NCBI RefSeq assembly: GCF_048403405.1
Contig: NZ_CP183129.1
DNA length: 64,000 nucleotides
From: Escherichia coli
Lineage (GTDB): Bacteria; Pseudomonadota; Gammaproteobacteria; Enterobacterales; Enterobacteriaceae
Reading direction: 5' to 3' (one strand)
Part shown: positions 6,745 through 12,913 of the stretch, piece by piece
How the letters are laid out: every line of letters starts with the position of its first letter
Numbering within the stretch: the stretch's first letter is position 1
Program-made: the position numbers and the translations under genes
The notes under the pieces: generated by a model
What the model saw: the letters and a program-made list of their open reading frames with translations, nothing else
Databases searched by the model: none
What the model was told of the DNA's origin: nothing

Positions 6745-8376
6745 TTAGTGCTTCACAATGTACATATTCCGGGTGTAGGTATTATCCAGCGGATCTTTGC
6801 CGGTATAGCCACCAACCCACGGTTTCACCAGACGCGCATTCACGTAGTAATAAACAGGAACAATGGCCGAATCCTTATCCAGCTGTTGTTCTGCTTTAGT
6901 GTACAGAGCTGTGCGCTGCGCCTCGTCAGTCGCTTTCAGCGTTTCCGCCATAATGCTGTCAAAGGCCGGGCTCTTATAATGCGCGGTATTCATCGAGCTG
7001 TTCGACAGCATGGTGTTCAGGAAGGAAGTTGGTTCGTTGTAGTCTGCACACCAGCCTGCACGGGCCACATCAAAAGTGCCCTGGTGACGGGTGTCGAGGA
7101 ATGTTTTCCACTCCTGGTTAACCAGTTTGACGTTTACACCAATGTTTTTCTTCCACAATGAAGAGGCAGCAATCGCCAGCTTTTTATGCAGATCGGAGGT
7201 GTTATACAACAGGTTGATGGTTAACGGTTTGTCTGCGGTATAACCCGCTTCAGCCAGCAGTTTTTTCGCTTCTTCGTTACGTTTTTCCTGGCTCCAGCCA
7301 AACCATTCCGGCTGAGTCAATTTTGCGCCATCAGTATACGGTGGAGTGTAACTATAGGCGGGCATGTCGCCCTGCGCTTTCACTTTATTAACAATGATAT
7401 CGCGGTCCATACCCAGTTTCAGTGCGGTACGCACACGTACATCGTTAAATGGCGGTTTCTGGTTGTTAATTTCGTAATAATAAGTGCACAGGTATGGATC
7501 AACGTGAACTTCGTCCGGGATCTCTTTTTTCAGCTTCTGGAACAATTCGATCGGCATGTTGTTATAAGTCATGTCGATTTCACCACTACGGTAGCGATTG
7601 ACATCGGTAACTTCAGAAGCAATAGGCAAATAGGTTACCTGGTTAATAACGGTTTTCGCGTTGTTCCAGTAGGTCGGGCTGCGTTCAAGAACGATTCGTT
7701 CGTTTACGACCCAATCTTTTAAGGTATAGGCACCGTTGGTGACGATATTACCAGGCTGGGTCCATTTTTCGCCGAATTTCTCGATAGCGGCTTTTGGCAC
7801 CGGTGAAGTTGACGGGTGAACAAGTAATTTATAGAAGTACGGAACGGGTTCACTTAAGGTGACTTCTAATGTGTGATCATCAATAGCTTTCACGCCGAGA
7901 TCGGTAATCGGTTTTTTCCCTTCAAGAATTTCATCAATACCGGCGATATGCCCATATTGCAGATAACTGGCATACGGAGAAGCGGTGTTCGGATCAACAG
8001 AACGTTGCCAGCTATACACAAAGTCTTGGGCTGTGACTGGCGTGCCATCAGACCATTTCGCATCTTTACGCAAATGGAAGGTCCAGACTTTCGCGTCTTT
8101 ATTATCCCAGGATTCAGCGACGCCAGGTGCCGGATGGCCGTCAAGATCGCTGACCAGTAAGCCTTCAAACAGGTCTCGGCTGATATTAGACTCCGGAACA
8201 CCTTCAATTTTGTGCGGATCTAATGACTGAACTTCTGAACCATTGTTACGTACCAGCGTTTGTTTTTCCGCCAGTGTGACGCCTGCGGGTACATCAGCTG
8301 CCAGCGCGACATTCCCTGCCATAAGCGCAGCCAGAACGCCAGCTGCTACTAAACTTCTCTTGGTGATGTTGGTCAT
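6745..8376 (-). CDS. oppA: periplasmic oligopeptide-binding protein
   Basis: Start taken at MTNITKRSLVAAGVLAALMAGNVALA (signal peptide) inside the 567 aa ORF-track entry, giving 543 aa; family 5 solute-binding protein. Confidence 0.93.
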   Translation of the reverse strand: MTNITKRSLVAAGVLAALMAGNVALAADVPAGVTLAEKQTLVRNNGSEVQSLDPHKIEGVPESNISRDLFEGLLVSDLDGHPAPGVAESWDNKDAKVWTFHLRKDAKWSDGTPVTAQDFVYSWQRSVDPNTASPYASYLQYGHIAGIDEILEGKKPITDLGVKAIDDHTLEVTLSEPVPYFYKLLVHPSTSPVPKAAIEKFGEKWTQPGNIVTNGAYTLKDWVVNERIVLERSPTYWNNAKTVINQVTYLPIASEVTDVNRYRSGEIDMTYNNMPIELFQKLKKEIPDEVHVDPYLCTYYYEINNQKPPFNDVRVRTALKLGMDRDIIVNKVKAQGDMPAYSYTPPYTDGAKLTQPEWFGWSQEKRNEEAKKLLAEAGYTADKPLTINLLYNTSDLHKKLAIAASSLWKKNIGVNVKLVNQEWKTFLDTRHQGTFDVARAGWCADYNEPTSFLNTMLSNSSMNTAHYKSPAFDSIMAETLKATDEAQRTALYTKAEQQLDKDSAIVPVYYYVNARLVKPWVGGYTGKDPLDNTYTRNMYIVKH

Positions 8377-9113
8377 TGTTTTTTGGACTCCCTCATTATA
8401 ATTACTGGTATTAACCAGCATGTGTAATCCCGGATTGGGACCCTGCACAGGCTCGGAGACTTTCTGCTGTCAGGTTACTTTATCGTTACGTATTACTATC
8501 ACCGACTTTATTTATTCTGGTGATTCAGACGATCACCTTATGTCGATTCGTACTGTGTCTCCCCTGTCGAGACACATTATTCTTTCGCGACGCTCTTTAA
8601 TTGTTAATTATTCTCATTACCAATAAAGAATCGTCTGGCGGTTGCCCGGAAAGTACCAAATGCGCTTCTTACTCGCCAATACATTTTGCAAAATTGTTAA
8701 GCAATTCTCTTTTATTGACCGTATCAGAATCTATAGCTTGCATCCATGTCTTAACAAACATCTTTTAATTCAATCAAATAGAGATTGGTTAAGCATGTCT
8801 CTCTTTTCTGATTACAGTTCCAGTAGTGAAATGCACAATAATTTAACAATTGATTATTATTTAGCACTTTCCTCTACCAAAGGCAGTGGAATTACTAATA
8901 TCATTTCAATTATTCTTCAGCAAGCCCAGGATTATGATGTGGCGAAAATAACATGATGGTGAGGAGAAGCAGTTACGGAAATCCTTATAACTAACTGTAA
9001 TTTGAGAAGAATATTTTTACCTATTCCTTTTGCTTTTGATAACTGCACCGGAACAAAGTAAAAATAATGACGAAGTAAACGGAGCATGGCAGCTCCGTTT
9101 CATTTGAAAGGAA

Positions 9114-9761
9114 TTAATTAAGCAGGCCGGGGAAAATCCCCTTAATACCAGTAACGATAAATTCAATCCCCAATGCCATCAGCAATAGCCCCATAATACG
9201 CGTGATCACGTTGATGCCGGTTTGGCGTAAAACCCGTACCAGCCACGGTGCCATGCGGAACAATCCCCAGCAACATAAAGCGAACAATGCAATAGCCACA
9301 AAGAAACCAAACAGATAGCTAATGCTGTGATAACGCGTACCCCAGACGATGGTAGAACTGATCGCCCCTGGCCCCGCCATCAACGGCAACGCCAGTGGCA
9401 CCACACCAATGCTTTCACGTACCGCGGTTTCTGATTTTTCTTGCTTGTTCTGTTTATCCTCGCCAAGCTTGCCGCTGATCATCGACATCGCTATCGTCAC
9501 CACCAGGATGCCCCCGGCGATACGGAACGAATCAATTGATATACCAAAAAGTTGCAGAATCGTGTCGCCGAGAAAAAGCGAGATCCACAAGATAATGGCC
9601 ACAGACAGGTTGGCTGTAAGGTTAGTTTTGTTTCGCGCTGCCGCTGTCTGATAACTGGTCATGCTGATAAAGACGGGAATAATCCCTACCGGGTTGACCA
9701 GCGCAAATAACCCGATGAAAAATTTGAAGTAAACGGGAAAATCAAAAAGGGTCTGAATCAC
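9114..9761 (-). CDS. ychE: MarC-family inner membrane protein
   Basis: 215 aa, multiple TM helices, position between oppA and adhE. Confidence 0.85.
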   Translation of the reverse strand: MIQTLFDFPVYFKFFIGLFALVNPVGIIPVFISMTSYQTAAARNKTNLTANLSVAIILWISLFLGDTILQLFGISIDSFRIAGGILVVTIAMSMISGKLGEDKQNKQEKSETAVRESIGVVPLALPLMAGPGAISSTIVWGTRYHSISYLFGFFVAIALFALCCWGLFRMAPWLVRVLRQTGINVITRIMGLLLMALGIEFIVTGIKGIFPGLLN

Positions 9762-10237
9762 GGTTAGCTCCGAAGCAAAAGCCGGATAATGTTAGCCATA
9801 AATAAGGTTAAAAAGACGCGCTGACAATACGCCTTTTGACAGCATTTTTCACCTCCTAACTACTTAAAATTGCTATCATTCGTTATTGTTATCTGGTTGT
9901 GCAAAACATGATAATGTAGCCAACAAATCATACTACAATTTATTAACTGTTAGCTATAATGGCGAAAAGCGATGCTGAAAGGTGTCAGCTTTGCAAAAAT
10001 TTGATTTGGATCACGTAATCAGTACCCAGAAGTGAGTAATCTTGCTTACGCCACCTGGAAGTGACGCATTAGAGATAATAACTCTAATGTTTAAACTCTT
10101 TTAGTAAATCACAGTGAGTGTGAGCGCGAGTAAGCTTTTGATTTTCATCGGTTAAGCAAATCATCACCGCACTGACTATACTCTCGTATTCGAGCAGATG
10201 ATTTACTAAAAAAGTTTAACATTATCAGGAGAGCATT

Positions 10238-12913
10238 ATGGCTGTTACTAATGTCGCTGAACTTAACGCACTCGTAGAGCGTGTAAAAAAAGCCCAGCGT
10301 GAATATGCCAGTTTCACTCAAGAGCAAGTAGACAAAATCTTCCGCGCCGCCGCTCTGGCTGCTGCAGATGCTCGAATCCCACTCGCGAAAATGGCCGTTG
10401 CCGAATCCGGCATGGGTATCGTCGAAGATAAAGTGATCAAAAACCACTTTGCTTCTGAATATATCTACAACGCCTATAAAGATGAAAAAACCTGTGGTGT
10501 TCTGTCTGAAGACGACACTTTTGGTACCATCACTATCGCTGAACCAATCGGTATTATTTGCGGTATCGTTCCGACCACTAACCCGACTTCAACTGCTATC
10601 TTCAAATCGCTGATCAGCCTGAAGACCCGTAACGCCATTATCTTCTCCCCGCACCCGCGTGCAAAAGATGCAACCAACAAAGCAGCTGATATCGTTCTGC
10701 AGGCTGCTATCGCTGCCGGTGCTCCGAAAGATCTGATCGGCTGGATCGATCAACCTTCTGTTGAACTGTCTAACGCACTGATGCACCACCCAGACATCAA
10801 CCTGATCCTCGCGACTGGTGGTCCGGGCATGGTTAAAGCCGCATACAGCTCCGGTAAACCAGCTATCGGCGTAGGCGCGGGCAACACTCCAGTTGTTATC
10901 GATGAAACTGCTGATATCAAACGTGCAGTTGCATCTGTACTGATGTCCAAAACCTTCGACAACGGCGTAATCTGTGCTTCTGAACAGTCTGTTGTTGTTG
11001 TTGACTCTGTTTATGACGCAGTACGTGAACGTTTCGCAACCCACGGCGGCTATCTGTTGCAGGGTAAAGAGCTGAAAGCTGTTCAGGACGTTATCCTGAA
11101 AAACGGTGAGCTGAACGCGGCTATCGTTGGTCAGCCAGCCTATAAAATTGCTGAACTGGCAGGCTTCTCTGTACCAGAAAACACCAAGATTCTGATCGGT
11201 GAAGTGACCGTTGTTGATGAAAGCGAACCGTTCGCACATGAAAAACTGTCCCCGACTCTGGCAATGTACCGCGCTAAAGATTTCGAAGACGCGGTAGAAA
11301 AAGCAGAGAAACTGGTTGCTATGGGCGGTATCGGTCATACCTCTTGCCTGTACACTGACCAGGATAACCAACCGGCTCGCGTTTCTTACTTCGGTCAGAA
11401 AATGAAAACGGCTCGTATCCTGATTAACACCCCGGCTTCTCAGGGTGGTATCGGTGACCTGTATAACTTCAAACTCGCACCTTCCCTGACTCTGGGTTGT
11501 GGTTCCTGGGGTGGTAACTCCATCTCTGAAAACGTTGGTCCGAAACACCTGATCAACAAGAAAACCGTTGCTAAGCGAGCTGAAAACATGTTGTGGCACA
11601 AACTTCCGAAATCTATCTACTTCCGCCGTGGCTCCCTGCCAATCGCGCTGGATGAAGTGATTACTGATGGCCACAAACGTGCGCTCATCGTGACTGACCG
11701 CTTCCTGTTCAACAATGGTTATGCTGATCAGATCACTTCCGTACTGAAAGCAGCAGGCGTTGAAACTGAAGTCTTCTTCGAAGTAGAAGCTGACCCGACC
11801 CTGAGCATCGTTCGTAAAGGTGCAGAACTGGCAAACTCCTTCAAACCAGACGTGATTATCGCGCTGGGTGGTGGTTCCCCGATGGACGCCGCGAAGATCA
11901 TGTGGGTCATGTACGAACATCCGGAAACTCACTTCGAAGAACTGGCGCTGCGCTTTATGGATATCCGTAAACGTATCTACAAGTTCCCGAAAATGGGCGT
12001 GAAAGCGAAAATGATCGCTGTCACCACCACTTCTGGTACAGGTTCTGAAGTCACTCCGTTTGCGGTTGTAACTGACGACGCTACTGGTCAGAAATATCCG
12101 CTGGCAGACTATGCGCTGACCCCGGATATGGCGATTGTCGATGCCAACCTGGTTATGGACATGCCGAAGTCCCTGTGTGCTTTCGGTGGTCTGGACGCAG
12201 TAACTCACGCCATGGAAGCTTATGTTTCTGTACTGGCATCTGAGTTCTCTGATGGTCAGGCTCTGCAGGCGCTGAAACTGCTGAAAGAATATCTGCCAGC
12301 GTCCTACCACGAAGGATCTAAAAATCCGGTAGCGCGTGAACGTGTTCACAGTGCAGCAACTATCGCGGGTATCGCGTTTGCGAACGCCTTCCTGGGTGTA
12401 TGTCACTCAATGGCGCACAAACTGGGTTCCCAGTTCCATATTCCGCACGGTCTGGCAAACGCCCTGCTGATTTGTAACGTTATTCGCTACAACGCGAACG
12501 ACAACCCGACCAAGCAGACTGCATTCAGCCAGTATGACCGTCCGCAAGCTCGCCGTCGTTATGCTGAAATTGCTGACCACCTGGGTCTGAGCGCACCGGG
12601 CGACCGTACTGCTGCTAAGATCGAGAAACTGCTGGCATGGCTGGAAACGCTGAAAGCTGAACTGGGTATTCCGAAATCTATCCGTGAAGCTGGCGTTCAG
12701 GAAGCAGACTTCCTGGCGAATGTGGATAAACTGTCTGAAGATGCATTCGATGACCAGTGCACCGGCGCTAACCCGCGTTACCCACTGATCTCCGAGCTGA
12801 AACAGATTCTGCTGGATACCTACTACGGTCGTGATTATGTAGAAGGTGAAACTGCAGCGAAAAAAGAAGCCGCTCCGGCTAAAGCTGAGAAAAAAGCGAA
12901 GAAATCCGCTTAA
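10238..12913 (+). CDS. adhE: bifunctional acetaldehyde-CoA/alcohol dehydrogenase
   Basis: 891 aa; N-terminal aldehyde dehydrogenase domain and C-terminal iron-type alcohol dehydrogenase domain; C-terminal lysine-rich tail. Confidence 0.97.

Follow-up and report, generated by a model that had tools for sequence, protein, structure and literature searches.

The 737-bp spacer between ychE and oppA (8377..9113 by RefSeq gene boundaries; the window is a 64,000-nt stretch of Escherichia coli DNA, NZ_CP183129.1) is the control region of oppA, already known and well studied. That it serves as the regulatory region of oppABCDF, and that the 53-codon open reading frame (ORF) antisense to it is a chance frame, is held with a probability of roughly 0.9, and we infer that the ORF is not translated. 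The initial annotation had preferred much the same reading, a chance ORF within a long oppA leader or promoter, and it is supported both by the experimental mapping of promoters P1 and P2 and of a 511-nt leader to this interval, and by conservation across genera, which corresponds to promoter elements and oppA-sense RNA structure.

The positions of genes, promoters and leader elements are collected in Table 1; the neighboring adhE gene is annotated on the + strand. The spacer is 100% identical to that of E. coli strain A10 and shows 95–99% identity in almost every one of 5424 complete-genome records, 67 of which lack a contiguous match to a 321-nt query. The region upstream of oppA had been described as AT-rich and this is borne out, with a GC content of 37% for the spacer as a whole and 0.31–0.37 across 8600..9100, versus about 0.45–0.55 in oppA and ychE (about 0.5 for the flanking genes). 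The left boundary first given for the spacer (8449, for a length of 665 bp) was 72 nt too short because the ORF-track entry for oppA is GTG-extended to 8448; the RefSeq start codon of oppA gives 737 bp. Those 72 nt (8377..8448) are part of the structured leader, and a CTGGT..ACCAG hairpin within them adjoins the ribosome-binding site and covaries across genera. An out-of-frame internal initiation site at the oppA coding start, giving a 7-aa ORF, has been reported from Ribo-RET and INRI-seq (PMC9825163).

At the other end of the spacer, the hairpin following ychE is likely the terminator of that gene, judging from its sequence and placement; it was not called in a terminator scan because its T-run is not adjacent to the stem. 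The gene ychT is a bona fide small ORF located 0.8 kb away from the 53-codon ORF. One of the loci compared, from E. coli strain 510016, has an IS1A element within ychE, which is there labeled a partial MarC-family pseudogene. An Rfam scan of 8000..10400 (E≤1) returned nothing credible, with only chance matches to plant miRNA and scaRNA families; to our knowledge, OppX-type leader RNA has no Rfam family.

Table 1. Features of the ychE–oppA interval and its flanks, in window coordinates.
Feature	Position	Strand	Basis or remark
oppA	6745..8376	−	RefSeq annotation; start ATG 8376
AU-rich putative translational enhancer (+399..+418)	8470..8489	−	Deleted in published oppA delta-399
MicF sRNA pairing site AAUAAAUAAAGUCGGUGAUAG (+372..+392)	8496..8516	−	Published footprint; RNAduplex
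Second stem-loop, directly 5′ of MicF site	8519..8537	−	Covariation
RNase E site (+341)	about 8547	−	PMC9988348 coordinate converted
Stem-loop with conserved loop GACAGGG, just upstream of RNase E site	8554..8576	−	Covariation
oppA 5′ untranslated leader from P1, 511 nt, AUG at +512	8377..8887	−	EM5064 5′ end
P2 start	about 8642	−	Published +246 converted; extended −10 ends 8 nt before
P2 core promoter	8650..8679	−	Conserved; −35 TTGGCG, 18-nt spacer, extended −10 TGGTACTTT
Conserved block AAAAGAGAAnnnnTTAACAAATTTGCAAAnTG upstream of P2	8680..8713	−	Identity 0.89–0.93 across genera
Conserved early-leader block AGAnnAATGTGCTAAATAAT..TGTTAAATT, +15..+54	8834..8873	−	Identity 0.81–0.84 in 74 non-Escherichia loci
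P1 start (+1)	8887	−	5′ end of P1-fusion reverse primer EM5064
P1 core promoter	8894..8924	−	Nearly invariant across genera; −35 CTTGCTG (8924..8918), 17-nt spacer
Conserved upstream element TGTTA-N6-(T/C)CACA	8938..8953	−	Conservation in 79 loci; centered near −58.5 of P1
53-codon ATG ORF, 53 aa (MSLFSDYSSSSEMHNNLTIDYYLALS...)	8795..8956, stop TGA	+	Judged a non-functional chance ORF
Long form of the ORF, 98 aa from ATG 8660 (WP_001211512.1) or 104 aa from TTG 8642	8660..8956 / 8642..8956	+	
Hairpin AAACGGAGC-N6-GCUCCGUUU, likely ychE terminator	9077..9100	−	Read from sequence, just past ychE stop
ychE	9114..9761	−	RefSeq annotation
ychT (b4771), 17-aa small protein gene	~9792..9845	−	RefSeq annotation, just upstream of ychE

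The P1 and P2 start sites (+1 and +246) and the 5′ untranslated region of E. coli oppA have been described previously (Igarashi et al. 1997, as cited; Masse laboratory, RNA Biol 2023, PMC9988348), and the interval analyzed here is the same locus with essentially the same sequence. It shows no structural difference from the published E. coli region, other than that this strain has a TATTAG −10 and is without the IS5 of MG1655. Features were placed by mapping the published primers of PMC9988348 onto the window with 0–1 mismatch. Three independent routes give 8887 as the P1 start: the end of primer EM5064, the delta-399 deletion, and the MicF footprint. Primer EM5096 matches the window in two halves, at 8448..8469 and 8490..8519, such that delta-399 removes 8470..8489, and the published MicF footprint (+372..+392) agrees with the best RNAduplex site (+360..+394) when +1 is set at 8887. 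Both mapped starts are preceded by appropriately spaced −35 and −10 elements of the sigma-70 type, and at P1 the extended −10 (TGATATTAGT, 8903..8894) ends 7 nt before the start.

An OppA-based scan with one genome per species recovered 80 loci from about 30 enterobacterial genera, 79 of which were used in the conservation analyses. At every locus with both genes on one contig, the ychE–oppA synteny is retained and the spacer measures 713–878 nt. Conservation is concentrated in blocks at 8953–8894, 8873–8834, 8713–8674 and 8513–8494, and near the ribosome-binding site; the segment at 8833–8794, which corresponds to the first 13 codons of the ORF, has only about 30% identity. The conserved letters inside the ORF are those of the sigma-70 promoter elements, in the orientation of oppA, together with the early-leader block.

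Several of the conserved blocks resemble regulatory sites. The element upstream of P1 looks like a CRP-type site or a pair of CRP half-sites, a likeness of motif only. The early-leader block is probably a protein-binding DNA site, given its conservation across genera. Its 8873..8859 portion has the consensus CAGATGAATGTGCTA (TAGAGGAAAGTGCTA in the window), which agrees at ~10 of 15 positions with the Lrp SELEX consensus and is a resemblance only. A ChIP signal for Lrp has been reported at the oppA promoter (bioRxiv 10.1101/276808), and Lrp may bind at this block. A strongly conserved AAAAGAGAA..TTAACAAATTTGCAAA block precedes the −35 of P2 (TTGGCG), and the conserved segment at 8680..8713 is a presumed regulator-binding site. 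The literature names Lrp, ArcA, Nac, Fur and ModE as regulators of oppA, and any pairing of particular factors with particular conserved blocks is tentative.

The leader carries conserved RNA structure in the oppA sense. In a dedicated alignment of 79 leader sequences analyzed with RNAalifold, the stem-loop at 8554..8576 has compensatory double changes at four of four predicted pairs (in 14–33 of the 79 sequences) and the stem-loop at 8519..8537 has compensatory changes at four pairs (in 12–40 sequences); over two oppA-sense hairpins, nine pairs in total have double compensatory changes, and the structure of the leader is thus backed by covariation. According to published work (PMC9988348), the leader has an RNase E site at +341 and pairs with MicF at +372..+392, some 120 nt ahead of the AUG, and an AU-rich enhancer lies downstream of the MicF site. 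The predicted MicF:leader duplex at +360..+394 has an energy of −24.8 kcal/mol, and the core of the MicF site (AAGUCGGUGAUAG) is nearly invariant in the 79 loci. RNAalifold also pairs AUCGAC (8542..8547, − strand), at the reported RNase E site, with GUCGGU (8501..8506), inside the MicF site; neither segment varies among the 79 loci, and covariation thus speaks neither for nor against this pairing. If formed, the predicted pairing might couple the binding of MicF to cleavage or enhancer access.

This leader is orthologous to Salmonella OppX, a 5′-UTR-derived sponge of MicF (Matera et al. 2022, as presented in PMC9988348). The Salmonella locus aligns throughout, with the MicF site and the covarying hairpins in common with the E. 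coli leader. Processed forms OppX-L, -M and -S are reported in Salmonella, and a stable leader fragment is reported as not detected in E. coli, where MicF is reported to activate oppA translation instead of being sponged (PMC9988348). An Hfq-dependent “ychE-oppA” sRNA was found by RNA-seq in 2011 (Raghavan, as cited in PMC6505713, PMC4070566 and PMC4152368), which is most simply a fragment of the oppA-sense leader matching Salmonella OppX. In the RIL-seq paper, oppA is absent from the main text.

Taken together, the − strand carries, in order from ychE to oppA, the likely ychE terminator hairpin, a variable spacer, P1, the early-leader block, P2 with its upstream block, and the structured leader. 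The leader in turn comprises the RNase E site, the MicF site, the AU-rich enhancer, and a GcvB-, Hfq- and polyamine-responsive region adjoining the ribosome-binding site. The ORF is most likely a stop-free frame that has arisen by chance on the strand opposite P1.

The 53-codon ATG ORF is present exactly as first described, nested in a 104-aa TTG ORF, although it is not part of the oppA leader in the sense orientation: it lies on the opposite strand, antisense to the leader and promoter, which the initial annotation missed. It is antisense to both oppA and ychE and overlies positions −69 to −1 of P1 and +1 to +93 of the leader; the N-terminal part of the long form overlaps the conserved block upstream of P2. 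In some RefSeq genomes the 53-aa ORF is labeled “hypothetical protein” (WP_000051910.1), and this accession and WP_001211512.1 (98 aa) match the ORF and the long form, respectively, exactly in position and in sequence; both are automatic calls with no name, family or supporting evidence. PGAP calls the ORF as a coding sequence in 41 of 60 evenly sampled genomes, starting at either the 53-aa or the 98-aa position, and labeling is inconsistent, as some genomes with an identical ORF carry no annotation. A search of 5.8 billion protein sequences found matches essentially only in Escherichia and Shigella, all “hypothetical” or “uncharacterized”; the remainder are two weak unnamed metagenome fragments and one record labeled Enterobacter hormaechei, which is probably a mislabel. 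Pfam and NCBIfam searches with the 53-aa and 104-aa translations gave nothing above threshold, and no paper found mentions the peptide or its accession numbers. The small-ORF Ribo-seq supplement of Stringer et al., a study that targeted proteins of ≤50 aa in MG1655, has no entry for oppA, ychE or nearby coordinates.

The ORF is no more than chance yields. Among 5000 dinucleotide-preserving shuffles of the 737-bp spacer, an ATG ORF of at least 53 codons arises in 44%, an open frame of at least 104 codons in 7%, and an ATG ORF of at least 98 codons in 2%; the long open frame is thus mildly unusual in a single spacer and expected somewhere in a genome. At the observed divergences, the frame has a probability of 0.34–0.76 of staying open if substitution is neutral. 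Substitutions are spread evenly over the three codon positions (8/8/6 and 11/12/8), pN/pS values are 0.33, 0.69, 1.38 and 2.93, no different from those of the two other frames and based on small counts, and neither measure gives a signal of purifying selection on the ORF. The Shine-Dalgarno match is weak, with anti-SD duplexes of −2.9 kcal/mol at ATG 8795 and −3.5 kcal/mol at ATG 8660 versus −5.8 to −8.4 kcal/mol at neighboring genes and a median of −1.95 kcal/mol over all ATGs in the window. A promoter scan of the + strand found no sigma-70-like match upstream of the ORF.

Within E. coli the frame is stable, being intact in 17 of 17 aligned E. coli and metagenome sequences as well as in an IS5-free reconstruction of K-12, with the aligned E. 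coli ORFs differing by a few amino-acid variants; a metagenome scan with the P1 block yielded 13 loci only. The ORF persists within the species because promoter and operator function fixes about half of its bases and strains differ by only ~1–2%. In both O157:H7 and Escherichia sp. L006 the longer form is broken by an in-frame stop. Interruption of the frame in close relatives had been named at the outset as the finding that would count against a small protein, and it occurs: of four other Escherichia species, two lack the ATG (AAG in L004, ATA in L006), and in L004 and L005 (E. whittamii) the C-terminal sequence is altered by a nearby 1-nt insertion. Open frames in E. albertii and E. whittamii use different ATGs. 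In other genera the P1 block either falls in other reading frames (..ITNIISIILQQ.. versus ..LKLLISFRLS..) or has no ORF, and at the Salmonella locus no ORF spans it. Frame and start, the conservation of which would be expected of a small protein, are thus not conserved in related species.

The frame is also interrupted in K-12 MG1655 (NC_000913.3 1299499..1300693), where an IS5U element splits the ORF. Its target, TTAG 8861..8864, falls within the early-leader block, 23 nt past the P1 start and between P1 (8887) and P2 (8642). The element is flanked by CTAA/TTAG, the duplicated 4-bp YTAR target; the window itself is IS-free. The insertion puts 1.2 kb between P1, the stronger promoter, and oppA. 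The strain used in PMC9988348 is presumably without this IS5 copy, because its P1 primer-extension primer (8833..8852) and P1 flank the insertion site. A further difference is at position 8895, which on the + strand is A in K-12 and C here and in the other sampled E. coli, so that the −10 of P1 is TATTAT in K-12, nearer to consensus, versus TATTAG here; in the frame of the ORF the change is T35N.

A real, young, Escherichia-restricted small protein (53 aa, or 98 aa for the long form), made from a transcript antisense to P1 and the leader, is very unlikely. It would accord with the intact ORF in every sampled E. coli sequence, the same-frame ORFs with other ATGs in E. albertii and E. whittamii, PGAP annotation in about two thirds of sampled genomes, and the occurrence of the long open frame in just 2–7% of shuffles. 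However, retention of an open frame is expected under neutrality, two Escherichia species lack the start and two have a frameshifted C-terminus, and selection, Shine-Dalgarno match, upstream promoter and family membership all fail to set the ORF apart. Most known small proteins of E. coli are hydrophobic helices, which the peptide does not read as, and disruption of the ORF by IS5 in MG1655 has no known consequence; absence from the Ribo-seq supplement counts weakly, as that study aimed at ≤50 aa in MG1655. A more elaborate form, in which expression across P1 of a young small protein specific to Escherichia, or of an antisense transcript that is translated, would couple its own synthesis to the repression of oligopeptide uptake, is likewise highly improbable.

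A non-coding antisense RNA running across P1, to which the ORF is incidental and which would dampen oppA through either transcriptional interference or leader pairing, has only a slim chance of being correct. AT-rich DNA often carries spurious or antisense promoters, and one promoter-like match on the + strand lies inside the ORF (8832..8860), but such matches are not above the shuffled expectation (4 found versus 2.7±1.9). The Hfq-dependent ychE-oppA sRNA (PMC6505713, PMC4070566, PMC4152368) could be taken as such a transcript but is most simply an oppA-sense leader fragment, and oppA-sense elements account for all of the detected conservation and covariation. It is scarcely credible that the open frame is a decayed remnant of an ancestral gene between ychE and oppA: a stop-free frame of 104–109 codons is moderately long for 37% GC, yet the same spacer length and promoter blocks occur in about 30 genera without a gene there, there is no Pfam match above threshold, and outside Escherichia and Shigella only the two weak metagenome fragments and the single Enterobacter-labeled record are found. 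This remnant-pseudogene reading was rejected, as no homologue was found. A chance frame opposite the promoter of oppA remains the preferred reading.

The value for discovery is small, as this is the characterized oppA region, in which inputs from Lrp, ArcA, Nac and other regulators are combined with those from GcvB, MicF, polyamines and RNase E. If the ORF did prove to be translated, it would exemplify the birth of a gene over a promoter, of moderate interest for research on de novo genes. The practical value lies in annotation: comparison lends no support to the “hypothetical protein” that RefSeq places on the opposite strand in about two thirds of the E. coli genomes sampled, and the conservation inside it belongs to promoter elements.
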